A DNA stretch of 20,000 nt from assembly GCF_002087085.1 (NCBI RefSeq), contig NZ_MWQY01000020.1:47974-67973 (forward strand), given 5' to 3'. The position numbers and the translations under genes were made by a program. The notes beneath the pieces are model-generated. The model saw only the letters and a list, made by a program, of their open reading frames with translations, did no database searches and was not told the origin of the DNA. This document shows positions 9,177 to 19,905 of the stretch, in pieces (position 1 is the first letter of the stretch; every line of letters starts with the position of its first letter).

Positions 9177-10132
9177 GACGTAACACTTTTTTGAGACGAA
9201 GCGGTTTTGCCCTTCTGGTGCTGGCAATAGTCCTTTTCAGCATATTCCCTTTTATTCAGATGCTCTCGATCTCCCTCAAGTATCCCGGGGAATGGGGCAA
9301 TCCGAGCCTGATCCCGGAAAAGATAAATCTGGAAGCCTACATGGAGCTTCTGAACATCGGCCAGAGTACAAAAAACGTTCCCGAATCCGTTCTGAACCTT
9401 CTGAATGAGACCCCTGACCTGACGAAGGAGCAAAGAGACGCGATACTGAGCAAATACAAAAGTACGGGAGACGTATTTCCCTTTCTCCGGTATTTTGGGA
9501 ACTCCTTCATGCTCTCCTTTTCAGCGGCCTTTTTTACCGTAATATTCGCCATCTTCGGCGCCTACTCCTTCAGCCGTCTGAGGTTCCCGGGGCGCTCATT
9601 TATTCAACGGGGGGTCCTTTTTGTCTACATGTTCGGAGGAATACTTCTTTTGATTCCCCTCTACAAGATGTTCGTCAGTATAGGCTGGATCAGCGTCCCC
9701 CCGGGAGCCTTCCTGAGCCTGCTGATAATCTATGTTGTCCAGACACTGCCGGTCTCCCTCTACATGCTGGGCAACTACTTCCGGACCATACCCTTCTCCA
9801 TAGAAGAGGCAGCCATGATCGAAGGGGCTTCACGGTTCGGGACAATCTGGCGAATTATAATTCCCCTTTCCATTGCGGCAATCGTTACTGTCTTCATCTA
9901 CTGCTTCATGATTGCCTGGAACGAGTACCTCTTTGCCTCGGTATTCCTGAAAAACTTCAAGGACCTCTACACCCTGCCCATGGGACTCAAGGCGCTTTTC
10001 ACCTCCAAGAATGCAATATGGGACCGTATCATGGCCGCATCGGTACTGACTGCGACGCCGGTAATTATTCTGTTTATCTCGATTCAGAGAAACCTGGCGG
10101 GAGGAATGGCCGCGGGGGGCGTAAAAGAGTAA
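9170..10132 (+). CDS. Carbohydrate ABC transporter permease (MalG-type, YcjP-like) with an enlarged first extracytoplasmic loop
   Basis: EAA loop IEEAAMIEGASRFGTIWRIIIPL; FMIAWNEYLFAS; C-terminal GMAAGGVKE. Overlaps the previous gene. Confidence 0.94.
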   Translation: MVRRNTFLRRSGFALLVLAIVLFSIFPFIQMLSISLKYPGEWGNPSLIPEKINLEAYMELLNIGQSTKNVPESVLNLLNETPDLTKEQRDAILSKYKSTGDVFPFLRYFGNSFMLSFSAAFFTVIFAIFGAYSFSRLRFPGRSFIQRGVLFVYMFGGILLLIPLYKMFVSIGWISVPPGAFLSLLIIYVVQTLPVSLYMLGNYFRTIPFSIEEAAMIEGASRFGTIWRIIIPLSIAAIVTVFIYCFMIAWNEYLFASVFLKNFKDLYTLPMGLKALFTSKNAIWDRIMAASVLTATPVIILFISIQRNLAGGMAAGGVKE

Positions 10133-10156
10133 GGGCTGCCCGTATACGGACAGCCC
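10133..10156. terminator. Intrinsic terminator hairpin between convergent genes
   Basis: GGGCTGCCCGTA/TACGGACAGCCC near-perfect inverted repeat immediately after the permease stop. On the minus strand it is followed by TTACTCTTTT. Confidence 0.7.
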
Positions 10157-10189
10157 CCGTGTTGACGATGGGAAACTATCTCTGAGGAA

Positions 10190-10966
10190 TCAGCGTTTTG
10201 CTCCTGCAAGGGCCTCTTCCACCAGGGAATAGAAGGTGTCATAGGAGATGGTTGCTCCGGTGACTGCATCAGGAACTGCAGTTTCCTGGCTCTCCAGGAA
10301 GGCCTTCTCTACGGCCTGGGCCTGCTCGTGCCACTCCCTGGTTGCATTGGAATTGGCCACCATGCCGTATTCCCCGTCCATGGAACGCTGAACCTTGTTG
10401 GTTCCGCCGTCTTCGGCCACGGCATCCCAGTGGGCGGATACCACATACCCGGAAGTTACCGTAAAATCTACAAAGTACTTCCATCCATTATGGAACTCGT
10501 CATCCGAAGCGGAGTAGGTACCGTCCTTGTAGGGACCATAGCCCACAGGACCTTTGGCCAGAGCTTCGGCGGCGAGTTCGTAGAACTCATTGTAGTGTAT
10601 GGTAGCTCCGCTTATGGCATCGGGCATCTCCGTGGAAGGATTTTCCCTGAAATACTCCTCCACCGCAGCGGCCTGAACATGCCAGTCTGCCTGGGCGCCC
10701 CCCTGGGCAACCATGGGATAATTACCTGCTTTGGAAACGGAAACCTTGTCGGGTCCGGCATTGATATTGGAGCCGTTCCACACAACCTCGGTGAACTCTC
10801 CGTCCTCAACCTTGAGGGTTACGTTATATTTCCATCCGCTTTTGGGGAATTCCGTCTGCTGGGCAAAGTAGATCCCGTCTTCGTAGCCTGTCCCCTTCGA
10901 ACTGCAGCTTACAAAAAGAGCGGCAGCGAGGGCCAGTACAACGGTAATTCTTACAATGTGTTTCAT
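10190..10966 (-). CDS. Lipoprotein with two tandem FMN-binding (flavinylated) domains, PplA/Tp15-like
   Basis: GGAGG RBS before ATG 10966; lipobox LFVS-C; two homologous domains YxDGxY...GWKY...W..QA.AVE...DAISGAT and ...DAVTGAT. Each matches the ApbE flavinylation motif DxxS/TGAT (at 10601-10621 and 10250-10270). Confidence 0.9.
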   Translation of the reverse strand: MKHIVRITVVLALAAALFVSCSSKGTGYEDGIYFAQQTEFPKSGWKYNVTLKVEDGEFTEVVWNGSNINAGPDKVSVSKAGNYPMVAQGGAQADWHVQAAAVEEYFRENPSTEMPDAISGATIHYNEFYELAAEALAKGPVGYGPYKDGTYSASDDEFHNGWKYFVDFTVTSGYVVSAHWDAVAEDGGTNKVQRSMDGEYGMVANSNATREWHEQAQAVEKAFLESQETAVPDAVTGATISYDTFYSLVEEALAGAKR

Positions 10967-11022
10967 AGAAACCTCCAATCCTCTTATATTGGCCTTTTAA
11001 TATAGTGTGAATAATATACTAT

Positions 11023-11051
11023 CTTATACCGACTTTGAATATATATTTCAA
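11023..11051 (-). promoter_or_regulatory. Putative sigma70 promoter for the FMN-binding lipoprotein gene
   Basis: Minus strand TTGAAA (11051-11046)-N17-TATAAG (11028-11023) within an AT-rich spacer. The -35 is part of a TTGAA-N7-TTCAA palindrome (11035-11051). Confidence 0.5.
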
Positions 11052-11154
11052 TATATTTAAAGCATATTATAGAGAAAATTCAGCATTATAAAGGTTGAGA
11101 CTTCTTTATCGCCCACAATATTCACAATTTACGATATTTAATCACATTAAATTA

Positions 11155-11183
11155 TTGACAGTATCTTATTTTACGTATACTGT
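11155..11183 (+). promoter_or_regulatory. Putative sigma70 promoter for the CxC-lipoprotein/rhodanese operon, overlapped by an inverted repeat
   Basis: Perfect TTGACA (11155-11160)-N17-TACTGT (11178-11183); TATACT at 11176-11181 is an alternative -10. An ACAGTAT/ATACTGT inverted repeat (11158-11164 and 11177-11183) spans the promoter. Confidence 0.6.
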
Positions 11184-11253
11184 AATCATGTTATATAAAT
11201 TTTCCTTGATGTTTTGTCCGCACAGAACAGAAACAGGGAAAAAGGAGTATTGC

Positions 11254-11856
11254 ATGAAGACTATCCGTTTGATGGCAGGAGCACTGGTTCTGATTATGGT
11301 ATTGGGCGCCTGCGGGGGCAATGCCGGGGCCGCAAAAGAGGAAGCCACCGCTGAAGCAGCCGAGCCTGCAAAGGGTATTACCCTGGAAAACGCCTTCTAC
11401 TATACCCATGTTGACGGGCACAAGAAGGAGACACAGATTCCCGCGGTTGTTCTTTTCGAGTATGAGCAGCTGAAAACAGTCCGCTACCAGGTGGCATATA
11501 TTGCCTGTACCTGCAGGGGACCGGAAGTAAACTACTGGTCCGTGGCGAATGTGGAAATCAATAAATCCAACCTCACCGTAGACCACATCTCCTATCACGA
11601 GGATTCCACCGACCATTACGTAGCCGGGATGTACGGCGACAGTACCGAATCCTGGGACGGTACGCCCGTGCGGGAGCTCTTTGACGGTTTTATCCAGGAC
11701 AGCATCCTTGGAAAATCGGAAAGCGAGATCGATGCCTATGTACCCATGCACGGGGAAGTTGATACCTACACCGGTGCAACAGTTACCCCCAACAACGCAA
11801 TGCGCATGCTCCAGGGGCTCTTTGAGTATCACAAAGAACACTACGGCAGCAACTAG
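11254..11856 (+). CDS. Uncharacterised lipoprotein with a CxC motif and a C-terminal flavinylation motif
   Basis: AAGGAG RBS before ATG 11254; lipobox VLGA-C; Ala/Glu linker; YIACTCRG (CTC at 11506-11514); VDTYTGATVTPNNAMRML (DxxTGAT at 11761-11781) followed by a helix, as in FMN_bind domains. Confidence 0.85.
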   Translation: MKTIRLMAGALVLIMVLGACGGNAGAAKEEATAEAAEPAKGITLENAFYYTHVDGHKKETQIPAVVLFEYEQLKTVRYQVAYIACTCRGPEVNYWSVANVEINKSNLTVDHISYHEDSTDHYVAGMYGDSTESWDGTPVRELFDGFIQDSILGKSESEIDAYVPMHGEVDTYTGATVTPNNAMRMLQGLFEYHKEHYGSN

Positions 11857-11889
11857 GGTTTCTGCCAAAAAAAATAGAGGAATAGAACT

Positions 11890-12786
11890 ATGATCAAGAA
11901 GACGACAATTATTCTGTTAACCTTAATGCTGGCTCTCTCCATTGTCTCCTGCGGCAAGTCCGGCGCAGATGCGGGTCTTACGGGAACCGAAGAGATCACC
12001 ATGGAGAATATCGACCAGTATATCGACAAAGACGCCAGATTCATCGATCTGCGGAATTTCGCCGACATGTTCAATGGCGGCTACATCGCCGGTTTCGAGG
12101 TAGTGCCCTTTTTCCAGTATCTGGAAGGCCGCGCCCTTGTCCGGAACAACGGATGGGAGTTCTCCGAGGCTGACGTGGTTGAACCGGCAATCCTGGAGAA
12201 CATCTTCGGTTCCAAGGAAGATGTAATCGTCCTGATGTGCGGTTCCGGAACCCGGGCCGGATACGTAAAGGACGCCCTGAACAGTCTGGGCTACACCAAG
12301 GTTATCAATGCCGGAGGGATTCGGGATTATAAGGGTGAAAACAAGGTCCTCGGGGACGGCAGCTACGCCGGCCAGATGGTCCTCCCCGCGGAGGTCACCA
12401 TGGAGAACATCGACCAGTACCTTTACCGGGACGGAGCCAAATACGTTGATCTGCGCAATGTCGCCGATAAATACGTGGGCGGATACATCGACAGTTTCGA
12501 GCTCGTCTCCTTCTTTGAATACCTTGAAAACAATGCCCTTGTCCGGAACAACGGATGGGAGTTTTCCGAGGCTGACGTGGTTGAACCGGCAATCCTGGAG
12601 AACATCTTCGGCTCCAAGGACCGGGAAGTATTCCTGATGTGCGGCTCCGGAACACGGGCCGGATACGTAAAAGATGCCCTTGAAAGCATCGGTTACACAA
12701 ACGTGTACAACGTCGGCGGGATTCGGGACTATAAGGGAGATCACAAGATCTTCGGCGATGAATCCTTCAGCCTGAACCTTCAGTAG
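11890..12786 (+). CDS. Lipoprotein with two tandem rhodanese-like (sulfurtransferase) domains
   Basis: GAGG RBS; lipobox IVS-C; each repeat has IDLRN/VDLRN, GYIxxF, an active-site loop LMCGSGTRA (Cys codons at 12238 and 12640) and LGYTKVINAGGIRDY/IGYTNVYNVGGIRDY. Confidence 0.9.
   Translation: MIKKTTIILLTLMLALSIVSCGKSGADAGLTGTEEITMENIDQYIDKDARFIDLRNFADMFNGGYIAGFEVVPFFQYLEGRALVRNNGWEFSEADVVEPAILENIFGSKEDVIVLMCGSGTRAGYVKDALNSLGYTKVINAGGIRDYKGENKVLGDGSYAGQMVLPAEVTMENIDQYLYRDGAKYVDLRNVADKYVGGYIDSFELVSFFEYLENNALVRNNGWEFSEADVVEPAILENIFGSKDREVFLMCGSGTRAGYVKDALESIGYTNVYNVGGIRDYKGDHKIFGDESFSLNLQ
12133..12620 (+). repeat. Intragenic direct repeat: 86-bp copies at 12133-12218 and 12535-12620 (84/86 identical) within a domain duplication of about 400 bp
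   Basis: GCCCTTGTCCGGAACAACGGATGGGAGTT(C/T)TCCGAGGCTGACGTGGTTGAACCGGCAATCCTGGAGAACATCTTCGG(T/C)TCCAAGGA occurs twice, 402 bp apart. Both mismatches are synonymous. Confidence 0.92.
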
Positions 12787-12806
12787 TATTCAGTTTATCC
12801 ACCCCG

Positions 12807-12844
12807 GCCCGGGTCCTTTCTCAAAGAGGATCCGGGCTTCTTTA
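12807..12844 (+). terminator. Intrinsic terminator after the rhodanese gene
   Basis: Stem GCCCGGGTCCTTT/AGAGGATCCGGGC (two G-U pairs) followed by TTCTTT; lies between convergent genes. Confidence 0.7.
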
Positions 12845-13912
12845 TGGAATCAGCTGAATTCCCGCCATAAGCTGGTGTCCATACGTCCTTATCAAGCCCG
12901 GATAATCCATGTGGTCAGACCCCAGGCCGTAGATTCCGAAACTCGCTATCCTGGGGCTGTAACGATACTCCAGGAAGAGGTTCAAGGAATCTCCAAGCCC
13001 CATGCTGTATCCCCCCAGAGCGGAAGCCCTAAGTCCGAAGCTTGTATAACAGTCACCTTCCCCCTCGGTGACAGAGAGTTCTCCGGCACCCGCCAGACCG
13101 AGGTATGCATGGCTGAGCTGAGGAAGGACTTCGAAATAGCGCCACAGGGGAAGCCGCATAAGGAAACGCTGCCCCAGGGAGAAGGTATGGACTGTAAGAT
13201 GAATCTGATCGTCGGTCTGTGACTGAAGGTTGTAGAGGAATTCCCATCCGCCGGAAAAAAAGCCTTCGCCCCCCTCAAGATACGATATCCCTGCCAGAAA
13301 TCCCGGTCCGTCGGTCTTTTCAGCGTCTTCATGATCGAAATCATCATCGTAGCGGACAGTCTGAAAGCTTCCTCCCAGCTTGAATTCAAGAAAATCCGGG
13401 TATTCCGCTCTGCGGGAATATTCACGCCGTTGATAGGGAGATGTCATGTCGCTCTCCTCCACCTCTGCTGAAGCCGAGGCGATTACATTCCCCTGCTGAA
13501 CATCAACAAGCTGCAGCAGAATTCTCATTCCCCTGTTAGTGTATCCGGGTCTGGAAAAACCCCGTACGGAACCGAACACCAGGTACTCCGCTCCCAGGGC
13601 ATTCCCGATGCTCACCGCTGTTTCGCTGTCCACAGCACCTGAAAGCTGGTATTCCAGCTCCTCCGTTATCCGGTCAATATTCTCGCGCTCAACGACCGCG
13701 ATGCCGGCGCGTATAAATGCCCGGGTTATTTCGTCGGCTACAAAACGCCCATTCTCCGGTTTCCCGTCAGTATCCATCTCGGCTACTGCAACGGTGGAAG
13801 TCCGCTGAAAACCGCTGATACATAGATCCTGTACCAGAGTGTCGTAGGTATCACTGTAAAGCAGAATTGATGATACCATTGCAAGCATCATAATAACGAA
13901 TTTCCTGGACAT
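12842..13912 (-). CDS. Exported protein with an N-terminal CsgG/HfaB/FlgO-like domain and a probable C-terminal outer-membrane beta-barrel
   Basis: Signal peptide; VAVAEM...VVERENIDRITEELEYQLSGAVDSETAVSIGNALGAEYLVFGS...LQLVDVQQGNVI is typical of CsgG/TolB-N-like domains. The C-terminal half has amphipathic aromatic strands (LNLFLEYRY, LMAGIQLIP). Confidence 0.75.
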   Translation of the reverse strand: MSRKFVIMMLAMVSSILLYSDTYDTLVQDLCISGFQRTSTVAVAEMDTDGKPENGRFVADEITRAFIRAGIAVVERENIDRITEELEYQLSGAVDSETAVSIGNALGAEYLVFGSVRGFSRPGYTNRGMRILLQLVDVQQGNVIASASAEVEESDMTSPYQRREYSRRAEYPDFLEFKLGGSFQTVRYDDDFDHEDAEKTDGPGFLAGISYLEGGEGFFSGGWEFLYNLQSQTDDQIHLTVHTFSLGQRFLMRLPLWRYFEVLPQLSHAYLGLAGAGELSVTEGEGDCYTSFGLRASALGGYSMGLGDSLNLFLEYRYSPRIASFGIYGLGSDHMDYPGLIRTYGHQLMAGIQLIP

Positions 13913-14067
13913 TTTTTCCCTCTTTTCTATCGCTTTTTGGGCATTATAATACCATATATACAGCCCTTATATACCGGATTTTTACTTCTCCATGAACTAT
14001 ATTGTACGAAAACGGGACAGGATATCAGGCCGGTCCCCGTTCAATGCAGTTCGACAAGGAGGAAGAA

Positions 14068-14373
14068 ATGGCGGAATATACCTTCGACGGAACAACCCTG
14101 CGGGACGGCAAGGGAACAAAGATGGGCGAGATTGACAGGAGCTACATTCGCGGATGGAACGCAGCCCTGCTGGGGCAGCTTGACCGGAAGAATATACGGG
14201 ATCCCAGGGGAAAGAAACTGCTGGAGTTTGACGGAAAAACCGTAAAGGATGATCTTGGAAAGAAGGTCACTACCATAAAGGAAATTCAGGAGCTGATAGA
14301 CGGCGAAGCGGACATTTCCCTGGTGGCGGCCTGGTATTTTCTAATTAAAAAACAGCAGGCCAACATGACATAA
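14068..14373 (+). CDS. Small hypothetical protein with four 16-residue beta-hairpin repeats (beta-flower-like)
   Basis: AAGGAGG RBS before ATG 14068; repeats FDGTTLRDGKGTKMGE / IDRSYIRGWNAALLGQ / LDRKNIRDPRGKKLLE / FDGKTVKDDLGKKVTT. Confidence 0.75.
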   Translation: MAEYTFDGTTLRDGKGTKMGEIDRSYIRGWNAALLGQLDRKNIRDPRGKKLLEFDGKTVKDDLGKKVTTIKEIQELIDGEADISLVAAWYFLIKKQQANMT

Positions 14374-17656: not shown

Positions 17657-17835
17657 TTTTACTCTCCAATTTTTCTACTGGAATAGTTAGAAGATTATTC
17701 GGAATGGAAAACTATTTCAATGGGTGCAGCATCATGATATACTATCCGGGAAATTGCGCCGGAGCTTCGGCCGCATGTAAAAATCGTCATTGTGTTAATG
17801 CATCCCGCCGGACTCAAGCATACGGGGGTGCGGAT

Positions 17836-19905
17836 ATGCTGCTTTTAAACCACAGTTCCAGGTTACAGGTTCCGGGATTCCTTACAGTTATTACGGTCAT
17901 GGCGGTTTTCCTCGTTTTCCCTGGATGCCCGACAGGAGGAAGCGGGGACAGGGGAGGAAGTAATGGGGAAGCGGACCAGACTTTTACTGCTGATCCCTTA
18001 AGCCTTGAAACATCCGCCGCCATTTCCGAGTCATGCGCAGAGGTGGAGCTGCTGTTGATGTCCCGGGGAATCTCCCAGGCAATGCTGGCAGCTGTTCCGA
18101 TACTGGAAAATCATGACTGTGTAAACGACGTGTCCTGGGTGGAACAGCCTGGAAGGGATCCGTACCTTCTGGTGGAGTTCAGCAACGGCATGCTGTTCCT
18201 CATGGATATCATCCGCCTGACCGATATCAGGCCTCCCGTGACAGGCGATCAGGGAATTCCTGCTTCAGGATCAACGGAACCTTTGTCATCATCCCTGATT
18301 CAGGGAATCGTGCAACCCCATGGAACCCGGGCCCAATTCTTTGATCTGCCGGAGTTCTCGACTGATACATGTTTGTGGATGAACTTGTTCGAAGATGCGG
18401 GGTATTCCTGGGAGTACCTTCCCGACTGGCGGGTAGAAGACTTCAGGAACCTTCACCAGAACGCTTTTACCTATGTTGCCACCCATGGATCGGTATTTCA
18501 GCATGGGGACGAAGAGTATTTTGCCTTCCATATTCCCAGCCATATGCGTTGTACCGATGATGACCTCAGCTATATCGCCAACGGCGATTTCTGGGACATT
18601 GCTGTCATACTGCAGCGAGGAATATATATCGTCGAAAATGAGGACCCCTTTGTCTCTGAAGACACCCGATACATGATTACAAACAAATATATCGAAAAAT
18701 ATTCCTCCGCTTTTTCAGACGGCAGCATTTTCTACGCCGATTGCTGCTATTCGGCGGAACCGAATCCCTATGATGAAGAATCGATTCCCCTTGTAAATAC
18801 CCTTCTCGGCATGAATGTTGGCCAGGTGCTGGGCTGGAACGCCCAGACCGGTAACCGGGGATCCATACGGGCGGCAAATTTTCTGGTTGGACAGATGATG
18901 GGAGATCTTTCCGGTCTTGATCTGCTTGATGAGGATTTTTCCGGCAAGCCCTTTAAACCTTACTCTCTGCTGGACTCTTTTACCGCGCTGCAGCATTTCT
19001 TCTGGCACTATTCAGTTCCCGGAGAGCTGATTCTTTTCGGAAACGGCGGAACGATACTCCGTCCGTCGATAAAGCACCTTCATGTAAATGTTGACGTTGA
19101 GGGAGGAGAAGACGATGAACTGTCGCTTCTGGGAAACTTCGGTGACCGGAGCGGAATGGTTATGGTATCGGAGGTTCAGGATAATCCTGCCGCAGGGACT
19201 TCACTTTCGTGGACCGATTGGCAGGATGACGGAATCATGGCCACACTGGATAACGAAACCGCCGGTTATATCACCGTAGTCGTAGACGGGGTTCCGAGTA
19301 ATGCCTTCCCCCTTTCCCGCTGGGAAATAACTGACCTGGAAGTGACAGGTATTCATCCCGGTGGAATCGGTCCGCAGCTCGAACTGACAATAAACGCCTC
19401 CTGGCGGGGGGAAATCCTTGATGAACGGGACGGGATTTTATCCGACGAAAGTGAGACATTCATGGAACCCGCCTGGTCGGAGCCGAATCCCGAGAACAGC
19501 AGAACAGCGACAGAATTCAGTATATCCTCCAGCTGCTATTACAGCTTTTCCGGAACCTTCGAGGACAGCAGGTACCGGTATGAGTATCCCGACGGCGCCA
19601 ACCAGGGATCCATGCCCCTTTCCTTTAACGGAATGCAAAACTTTCTCGGTACTGTAACAATGCGCCCGGATGAGGGAAAAGCACTTTTCAATATTCTCCT
19701 GACAAGGGAAGCCTTTGTTCTGAAGACCGACAAGCAAAGCGGTGCAACCACTGCGGATGAAATCTTCGTATCCGTCGGACTCATATTCGAAACCGGGATG
19801 GACAAAGACGGCAATATTTCCAGTCACGAGGAGCTAAGTCCCTATCAGTTCACCCTGCCCGACATAGAACCTGAATACCCTCCCCTTCAGGAGACATGCC
19901 GTTGA
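17836..19905 (+). CDS. Large acidic hypothetical lipoprotein; possible clan CD (caspase/gingipain-fold) cysteine-peptidase-like domain followed by an IPT/TIG-like domain
   Basis: Long ORF (track start 17704; ATG 17836 follows GGGGGTG). A hydrophobic stretch ends in VFPG-C and is followed by a Gly/Ser linker. Motifs TYVATHGS, IFYADCCYS and VLGWN; Ig-like GNFGDRSG...W.DWQDDGI...GYITVVVDGVPSN. Confidence 0.7.
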   Translation: MLLLNHSSRLQVPGFLTVITVMAVFLVFPGCPTGGSGDRGGSNGEADQTFTADPLSLETSAAISESCAEVELLLMSRGISQAMLAAVPILENHDCVNDVSWVEQPGRDPYLLVEFSNGMLFLMDIIRLTDIRPPVTGDQGIPASGSTEPLSSSLIQGIVQPHGTRAQFFDLPEFSTDTCLWMNLFEDAGYSWEYLPDWRVEDFRNLHQNAFTYVATHGSVFQHGDEEYFAFHIPSHMRCTDDDLSYIANGDFWDIAVILQRGIYIVENEDPFVSEDTRYMITNKYIEKYSSAFSDGSIFYADCCYSAEPNPYDEESIPLVNTLLGMNVGQVLGWNAQTGNRGSIRAANFLVGQMMGDLSGLDLLDEDFSGKPFKPYSLLDSFTALQHFFWHYSVPGELILFGNGGTILRPSIKHLHVNVDVEGGEDDELSLLGNFGDRSGMVMVSEVQDNPAAGTSLSWTDWQDDGIMATLDNETAGYITVVVDGVPSNAFPLSRWEITDLEVTGIHPGGIGPQLELTINASWRGEILDERDGILSDESETFMEPAWSEPNPENSRTATEFSISSSCYYSFSGTFEDSRYRYEYPDGANQGSMPLSFNGMQNFLGTVTMRPDEGKALFNILLTREAFVLKTDKQSGATTADEIFVSVGLIFETGMDKDGNISSHEELSPYQFTLPDIEPEYPPLQETCR

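Follow-up and report, generated by a model that had tools for sequence, protein, structure and literature searches.

A conserved lipoprotein pair, an RnfG-like predicted flavoprotein with putative selenocysteine-containing relatives and a tandem rhodanese, as a candidate extracytoplasmic sulfane-sulfur reductase

The subject of this study is a cluster of three lipoprotein genes, here termed A, B and C, in a 20,000-nucleotide stretch (the window) of the contig NZ_MWQY01000020.1 (NCBI RefSeq assembly GCF_002087085.1, positions 47,974 to 67,973 of the forward strand). Of particular interest is the pair formed by B, a predicted flavoprotein whose modeled fold resembles RnfG and NqrC, and C, a tandem rhodanese. 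The original prediction, made from the letters of the window, regarded the three products as a membrane-tethered chain, in which the rhodanese would mobilize sulfane sulfur, B would reduce it, and A, a protein with two flavin mononucleotide (FMN)-binding repeats, would supply the electrons. The genes and their associated features are listed below, with positions counted from the first letter of the window.

10131-10158, terminator-like hairpin between the convergent ABC-permease gene and gene A (12 pairs, 8 of them G-C, loop of 4)
10190-10966, minus strand, gene A, a 258-residue lipoprotein with two FMN-binding repeats (open reading frame (ORF) call; Pfam FMN_bind, 36.3 bits)
10250-10270, within gene A, motif DAVTGAT (regular-expression match)
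10601-10621, within gene A, motif DAISGAT (regular-expression match)
10967-11253, AT-rich divergent spacer between A and B (27.9% G+C versus 53.6% for the window)
11254-11856, plus strand, gene B, a 200-residue lipoprotein with an RnfG/NqrC-like fold, C85-T86-C87-R88 and DTYTGAT
11506-11514, within gene B, motif CTC (regular-expression match)
11761-11781, within gene B, motif DTYTGAT, residues 170-176 (regular-expression match)
11890-12786, plus strand, gene C, a 298-residue lipoprotein with two rhodanese domains
12238-12258 and 12640-12660, within gene C, motif CGSGTRA (regular-expression matches)
12806-12838, plus strand, terminator-like hairpin 3' of C, followed by a T-rich tail (14 pairs, 8 of them G-C, loop of 5)

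A Shine-Dalgarno-like GGAG or GAGG closely precedes each of the three genes, and each product has an N-terminal signal peptide closing with a lipobox-like cysteine (FVSC in A, LGAC in B and IVSC in C). The start of A was taken as the ATG at 10966, with GGAGG 5 nucleotides upstream, in preference to the TTG at 10978; its stop at 10190 is convergent with that of the ABC-permease gene at 10132. Gene C begins 33 nucleotides downstream of B. Both A and C are internally repeated, with halves that are 45% and 72% identical, respectively. The lipoboxes, motifs, AT-rich spacer and flanking hairpins are all present as originally described. The spacer between A and B presumably holds the promoters of both genes; the sigma-70-like promoters that had been proposed there were not borne out as an enrichment, with 4 promoter-like hexamers found versus 3.3 expected in shuffles. 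Contigs from metatranscriptomic libraries of three sediment studies, at least 99% identical to the locus, cover A, B and C, and those of two of the three studies bridge the gap between B and C. The stretches 10863-11183 and beyond 12896 are uncovered in all four runs, which carries no finding. Between B and C, the contigs of two RNA libraries are one base short in the A-run at window position 11867, probably as a result of homopolymer strain variation.

The conservation of this locus in other genomes centers on B and C. A scan for B with one genome per species recovered 27 loci, and in 26 of them a close homolog of C (57-92% identity) lies directly downstream. The sole exception (L004) is a second B copy of one genome, which lies beside a gene for a 706-residue Pyr_redox_2-rhodanese protein. 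In a sample of 401 genomes from the phylum, B is present in 7. C-like rhodaneses (E<=1e-15) occur in 4 of the 401, where all adjoin B, and in none that lacks B; the remaining three genomes with B have, next to it, a rhodanese lipoprotein that is more divergent. A rhodanese is likewise adjacent or fused to B in 6 of 6 metagenome loci encoding the TGA-containing forms described below. The two domains are also found in single polypeptides, with B preceding the rhodanese in L027/P0121, P0125, P0126, P0153 and P0151, and the rhodanese preceding B in P0127 and L043. Such fusions make up 5 of the 22 long B representatives scanned, plus P0121. At L052, likewise, the rhodanese comes before B. The neighborhood survey kept 118 of the 178 ORFs within 3 kb of the B-C pairs, having dropped ORFs shorter than 90 residues and left out L002, a near copy of the window; among these 118 there is no conserved third gene, and no family recurs in more than 3 loci.

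The linkage, together with the co-occurrence in the phylum sample, marks B-C as the conserved unit and A as a looser associate, and supports the view that B and the rhodanese C are a functional unit. The distribution of B is sporadic. In the class of G001, a Lachnospirales assembly, B was found in at least 1 of 400 scored genomes, and in its order in at least 1 of 301, that genome being G001 itself in both cases; these counts are floors, since 8 candidates were scored per genome and one genome of the class went unscored. The exceptional locus L004 has features of its own: the B paralog (L004:6666-7292) has no rhodanese gene behind it, the Pyr_redox_2-rhodanese gene (L004:7443-9563) is convergent with it and CoA-disulfide-reductase-like, and DUF1007/NicO and PNPOx genes lie upstream.

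Protein B has about 150 close homologs, mostly from spirochaete assemblies and nearly all unnamed or annotated as 'hypothetical' or 'FMN-binding'; a protein-atlas search with B likewise returned only unnamed or 'FMN-binding' clusters. Some relatives pass the Pfam FMN_bind (PF04205) cut-off of 22 bits (P0124, 24.8; P0127, 25.0; P0121, 23.6), and a precomputed PF04205 match exists for 15 of the 120 B homologs listed. Neither B nor its TGA forms match an NCBIfam model, and a search of the PDB sequences with the B profile gave nothing meaningful. An alignment of 29 B sequences is invariant at C85-T86-C87-R88, Y127-G128-D129-S130, M165-H166-G167, G174-A175-T176-V177-T178 and N180-N181, a set of residues that appears, at the level of sequence, to exceed by far the needs of a simple electron-relay domain.

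Structural comparisons were made with an AlphaFold2 model of B (mean predicted local distance difference test score of 78). With VIA-align, residues 44-200 of this model best matched RnfG (7zc6_G; Z 9.4, 112 residues aligned, root-mean-square deviation 2.9), followed by a second RnfG structure (8ahx_G; Z 7.6), the RnfG-like TM0246 (3dcz; Z 6.7) and NqrC (4xhf; Z 6.3). Individual FMN domains of multi-flavinylated proteins rank lower among the structure matches, and no PDB entry reached E<=0.001 when the model was searched with Foldseek. The modeled fold of B is thus of the RnfG/NqrC type. In the model, Thr176 lies just before the long C-terminal helix, a placement which we take to be equal to that of the flavinylated threonine in this fold. 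The sequence around it, DTYTGAT, with G174, A175 and T176 invariant in 29 of 29 sequences, conforms to the [S/T]GA[S/T]-like motif by which ApbE targets are defined in PMC8238504. Thr176 is the predicted FMN site of B.

The most informative feature of the B family is the variation at the second cysteine of its C-x-C-R motif. In L028, from G001, an in-frame TGA stands in place of the codon for the second Cys of C-T-C-R, and the reading frame runs on through all the downstream invariant motifs. A TGA-specific DNA pattern recovered 6 metagenome loci (L038-L043), all 6 encoding full-length homologs, of which 5 are distinct, bringing the total with TGA at this position to seven. An exhaustive search with a B profile yielded 96 representatives; of the 16 short ones examined, 7 terminate precisely at ...[AS]CT, one codon ahead of the TGA position. 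The aligned column is Cys in 29 of 29 close B sequences, and among 24 more distant Cys-form relatives that Cys is absent only from P0133 (SCTSR) and P0149 (SCNTR), with Trp or Gly in none. In a tree of 47 rows, two well-separated clades hold the TGA forms; three changes are needed to explain them, and well-supported branches force at least two. The L028 genome G001 also encodes SelB (336.9 bits versus a cut-off of 242.25). A hairpin resembling a selenocysteine insertion sequence (SECIS), located +19 to +42 after the UGA and with a GGU-type loop, is found in 4 of the 6 distinct TGA genes (-7.1 to -10.7 kcal/mol).

Decoding of TGA under an alternative genetic code was considered and rejected: the long genes nearby have uninterrupted frames under table 11, and tryptophan is encoded by TGG (53 and 26 codons), showing that TGA does not serve as a general sense codon in these contigs. 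TGA does act as a stop, ending 1 of 28 long ORFs in one set checked and 1 of 11 in another. For the G001 loci L028-L036 and L058, about 48 kb of low-G+C sequence, the figure is 1 of 28, with TAA or TAG ending the others. The TGA-form proteins are also distinct from the 'rhodanese form 3, CxU' selenoprotein of the 2026 review of the prokaryotic selenoproteome (PMC13188914): the corresponding model for the rhodanese LYCAU selenoprotein (NF041203) does not match them at E<=0.01, and its genome-wide matches in G001 and in the window's own genome (G000) fall elsewhere and below the cut-off. At L038, two rhodanese-B pairs stand in tandem behind rnf genes, one B copy being a Cys form with C-G-C-R (L038:1867-2532) and the other a TGA form (L038:3291-3869).

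Exchange of Cys and selenocysteine (Sec) at one aligned position is an accepted signature of a redox-active catalytic cysteine (PMC1794560). As TGA, a putative Sec codon, replaces the codon of Cys87 in relatives from at least two clades, Cys87 is a probable catalytic redox residue, and the earlier designation of the CxC of B as a redox site is strengthened. The sequence evidence further suggests that these relatives of B constitute a previously unlisted selenoprotein family, of which the B of the window is a Cys form.

The partner, protein C, matches the Pfam Rhodanese model (PF00581) over two stretches with 48.5 bits (cut-off 22.2). Its catalytic loop is the six-residue C-X4-R type, present twice as CGSGTR, and all 16 aligned sequences share Cys117. 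The PspE models TIGR02981 and NF007627 give 52-53 bits, below their cut-offs of 126 and 102. A complex prediction for B residues 40-200 with C residues 30-298 returned a score of 0.01, which weighs neither for nor against binding.

We then considered how such a pair might be flavinylated and supplied with electrons. ApbE is encoded in all 7 B genomes examined, which is weak evidence given how common ApbE is. The window's genome has one apbE, for a lipoprotein ApbE, located outside the window; a Pfam scan of the window ORFs found neither apbE nor a membrane redox protein or electron donor, as had been stated originally. Closer links are seen elsewhere. L050 has the gene order FMN_bind-B, rhodanese, ApbE, rhodanese, and in L038 and L039, both low-G+C metagenome contigs, the rhodanese and B are immediately preceded, on the same strand, by rnfE, rnfA and a short rnfB; the ORF before rnfE in L039 ends in an RnfG-like motif. 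The 118 neighbor ORFs of B-C include no ApbE, Rnf, DsbD or FMN_bind protein. Two Rnf-type clusters and two FMN_bind-flavocytochrome-type proteins are encoded in the window's genome, but as 24 of the 26 neighbor-scanned loci have no membrane donor within 3 kb, the donor there is a matter of conjecture. Regarding molybdenum enzymes, the single PF00384 molybdoenzyme of this genome is of the DmsA/YnfE type (919.6 bits versus 777.7), no PhsA/PsrA-type enzyme was found in it with the models used (the PF00384 protein scores 212 versus 694 on the PhsA model), and AsrC gave no match above the cut-off. The molybdopterin-independent reading of the original prediction is only compatible with these results.

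Protein A, with 36.3 bits in Pfam FMN_bind (cut-off 22), has as its best NCBIfam match the PplA model NF041941, at 60.8 bits far under the cut-off of 325, and the window ORFs around it include no Ndh2/EetA/B/DmkA/FmnB locus for extracellular electron transfer. A connection of canonical FMN_bind domains to B comes from three genomes of another spirochaete family (L049, L050 and L051), in which such a domain, bearing a flavinylation motif of its own, precedes B in a single polypeptide and a rhodanese lipoprotein gene follows. These fusions keep alive the idea of an FMN relay. In the role of electron supplier originally given to it, A itself is no constant member, as detailed below. Since A is often unlinked to B or found without it, A probably serves other acceptors too, for example the FMN_bind-flavocytochrome-type lipoproteins of the window's genome. 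About 21 kb upstream of the window (G000:C13:26600-26812; L047:1375-3108), a gene encodes a 577-residue lipoprotein in which FMN_bind is fused to a flavocytochrome-c/fumarate-reductase-type domain; this protein is likely another ApbE client, and possibly a client of A.

The remaining genes of the window encode a sugar ABC transporter, a TRAP transporter, regulators, dehydrogenases, an LpoB/CsgG-like lipoprotein and a Usp protein. Three of its ORFs have features worth recording: 1) a 356-residue protein (12842-13912, minus strand), convergent on C, with an LpoB/CsgG-like N-terminal part and a C-terminal half lacking a family match; 2) a 123-residue protein (14002-14373, plus strand) with weak, sub-cut-off 'beta-flower' Pfam matches, which is kept in the close relative L002; and 3) a 733-residue ORF (17704-19905, plus strand) with no Pfam family at E<=0.001.

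Taken in the context of what is known of the families involved, these observations lead us to propose a mechanism for the pair. The periplasmic lipoprotein ApbE would load FMN covalently on Thr176 of the RnfG/NqrC-like B, which would hold a redox-active Cys85-x-Cys87 pair (Cys-x-Sec in some relatives) beside the flavin. Following the chemistry of its family, the rhodanese C would use its loop cysteine to accept the sulfane sulfur of thiosulfate, polysulfide or persulfides, forming a persulfide. The nucleophilic Cys87 of B, or the Sec at this position, would then attack the persulfide of C, releasing sulfide and leaving a Cys85-Cys87 disulfide or a selenenylsulfide, which reduced FMN would in turn re-reduce. 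To judge from gene contexts, electrons may pass from the membrane to the B flavin via a canonical FMN-binding relay (A, or the domain fused to B), via the periplasmic flavin of Rnf, or via both. The net outcome would be a sulfane-sulfur reductase without molybdenum or heme, serving the cell in sulfidic sediment as a sink for electrons or for protection. In passages of PMC3035371 and PMC5497025, fermenters including one spirochaete are described as reducing thiosulfate or S0 with 'rhodanese-like' proteins, and a Sec residue is essential in a Geobacter polysulfide reductase (PMC13510729). That B and C form a two-protein, membrane-tethered periplasmic sulfane-sulfur reductase is a reading we advance tentatively, as one that we would put slightly short of an even chance.

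Several observations weigh against it. With PF04205, B itself scores 18.7 bits, under the cut-off, and when a B profile was compared with A using hhalign only the signal peptides aligned. The clade with most of the TGA forms has the C-terminal motif [AT]GSS and not [ST]GA[ST], making flavinylation less sure in that clade. The SECIS support for the TGA forms is weak: L041 has a different hairpin, that of L028 reaches only -4.1 kcal/mol, and there are no compensatory pairs. Within 3 kb, a membrane donor is absent from 24 of the 26 neighbor-scanned loci. The reduction potential of thiosulfate is very low, about -400 mV, and ferredoxin-level electrons would be needed. The RNA-library contigs are compatible with expression and with co-transcription of B and C and cannot prove either. 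A separate matter is the stricter form of the original prediction, an obligatory three-protein chain with the di-FMN protein A as the dedicated donor of B-C and the three genes as one module. Against this form, an A-like gene stands beside B in only 4 of the 27 loci (in divergent orientation in L002 and L003, and ahead of B-C on its strand in L010 and L015), and 7 of the 10 genomes with A-like genes in the phylum sample of 401 lack B. Where both are present, A is unlinked to B-C in 2 of 3 genomes, lying about 870 kb away in G633 and on a separate contig in G411. The adjacency of A in the window and in the four loci just named speaks for it, as do the fusions of canonical FMN_bind to B and the RNA-library coverage of all three genes; on balance it appears doubtful. 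The co-occurrence that had been expected of the three genes stood for B and C, including fusions in both orders, and fell for A.

Three further readings differ from the reductase in what the pair does. The reaction might run in reverse, with B-C oxidizing sulfide or thiols like sulfide:quinone reductase or flavocytochrome c sulfide dehydrogenase, sulfane sulfur being delivered to the rhodanese and electrons exported through FMN to A, Rnf or another acceptor. The combination of a flavin, a cysteine pair and a rhodanese is equally the logic of sulfide-oxidizing systems. The locus does occur in sediment RNA libraries, and a selenoprotein subtype of type III sulfide:quinone reductase figures in PMC13188914; however, no quinone-binding or cytochrome partner appears in any neighborhood scanned, and the rnf links and the [FeFe]-hydrogenase-bearing anaerobes of L038 and L039 suit a reductive electron sink better. 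We consider the oxidative direction unlikely. Somewhat less probable again is a role in envelope thiol-disulfide housekeeping, in which B would be a flavin-dependent sulfhydryl oxidase or reductase and the single-Cys rhodanese a shuttle, together acting on periplasmic disulfides, sulfenates and persulfides in a PspE/Dsb-like manner. PspE is reported to rescue disulfide formation, and the closest named relatives of C are indeed the periplasmic PspE models (53 bits, below 102) and the PspE structure 2jtq; thiol oxidoreductase selenoproteins in PMC13188914 also have CxC/CxU motifs. Yet the sporadic spread of the pair, in 7 of the 401 phylum-sample genomes and at least 1 of the 400 in the class of G001, would be odd for a folding system, and there is no recurring thioredoxin-fold partner, Thioredoxin_9 being found only in the related loci L008 and L014.

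Least probable of all, and in our estimate very improbable, is a function in metal or metalloid handling, where the Cys-x-Cys/Sec center would bind and, together with the flavin, reduce selenite, tellurite, arsenate, Hg(II) or Cu(II), with the rhodanese as a carrier of Se or S. A flavin plus a Cys pair is the logic of MerA, the L004 B paralog is near DUF1007/NicO metal-transport genes, and Sec/Cys pairs in metal transporters and MerT-like proteins are among the selenoproteins of PMC13188914. Against this, the loop of C has the six residues (C-X4-R) of the sulfurtransferase type, where the Cdc25/Acr2 type has seven, and metal-resistance genes do not recur around B-C.

Returning to the sulfane-sulfur reductase as our preferred reading, one of its closest known parallels is Npsr, the NADH-dependent persulfide/polysulfide reductase made of a CoA-disulfide reductase fused to a rhodanese, in which a flavin, a redox-active Cys and a rhodanese Cys are combined in one persulfide- or polysulfide-reducing unit. 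B-C has the same combination, and B might work like Npsr without being a member of that family: Npsr is cytoplasmic, with non-covalent FAD, a Pyr_redox_2 fold and NAD(P)H as its reductant, whereas B, a lipoprotein of RnfG-like fold, is predicted to carry covalent FMN and lacks a nucleotide-binding domain. By Pfam, none of the three proteins has a Pyr_redox_2 FAD/NAD(P)H domain, and the Npsr-type structures 3nt6 and 6pfz are weak matches of the B model (Z 4.2-4.3). By analogy, we propose that the logic of the cytoplasmic CoA-disulfide-reductase-rhodanese persulfide reductases may have been rebuilt extracytoplasmically on another flavin scaffold.

The other comparisons concern the parts of the system. 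B shares with RnfG and NqrC, its best fold matches, an extracytoplasmic location and a [S/T]GA[S/T]-type motif before the C-terminal helix; it differs in being below the Pfam cut-off, in being a free lipoprotein and not a complex subunit, and in its invariant C-x-C-R with Sec variants, along with many invariant residues absent from relay domains. A resembles Listeria PplA as a lipoprotein with two FMN_bind repeats carrying flavinylation motifs, and is set apart from it by its low score (60.8 versus 325) and by the missing Ndh2/EetAB/DmkA/FmnB locus. C is, like Sud of Wolinella and PspE of E. coli, an extracytoplasmic rhodanese with a C-X4-R loop, PspE being its nearest named relative. Unlike these, it is a tandem, lipid-anchored protein, falls under the PspE cut-offs, and has as its constant partner a flavoprotein and not the molybdoenzyme Psr. 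MccSep of Geobacter, in the portion of PMC13510729 covered, likewise joins an extracytoplasmic redox cofactor to a Cys/Sec pair for polysulfide reduction; that protein is multiheme, its cofactor being heme c, its fold is unrelated, and a rhodanese partner is not reported in that portion.

We also asked whether such a system had been described before. The main text of the selenoproteome review PMC13188914 has no mention of FMN, flavin, Rnf, NqrC or PF04205, and its four CxU entries are other families. The word 'rhodanese' is absent from the main text of the eLife survey of flavinylation (PMC8238504) and from its 2024 follow-up; the portion of the PMC8238504 supplement covered has no rhodanese either, and its large gene-cluster table might list such clusters. 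In a literature search with subscription journals outside its scope, no paper was found joining flavinylation with a rhodanese, or a selenoprotein with FMN-binding and a rhodanese. As most of the B family lies under the Pfam FMN_bind threshold, this may be why flavinylation gene-cluster surveys did not report it. The interpretation originally offered is on the whole partly supported, and what has emerged from it is sharper: judging by sequence, a conserved flavoprotein-rhodanese pair, whose active cysteine is a putative selenocysteine in some lineages.

A broader claim can be made with somewhat less assurance than that for the pair itself. B may represent an unrecognized enzyme class and selenoprotein family, an ApbE-flavinylated RnfG-like domain with a Cys-x-Cys/Sec center, which together with its dedicated rhodanese would act as a molybdenum- and heme-free reductase of thiosulfate, polysulfide or persulfides fed by Rnf or FMN relays. 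In fermentative spirochaetes and some Firmicutes, this reductase could be the sulfidogenic enzyme that is still missing. Flavinylation of extracytoplasmic proteins is chiefly known as a means of electron relay; here a domain of the flavinylated type seems to have been turned into an enzyme with a thiol or selenol active site of its own. If this is true, the prokaryotic selenoproteome would gain a new family, and sulfide would be formed from thiosulfate, S0 or persulfides by a new route needing neither molybdenum nor heme. It would also provide a candidate for sulfur reduction by fermentative spirochaetes, for which the literature, as represented by the part of PMC3035371 covered, so far names only 'a rhodanese-like protein'.

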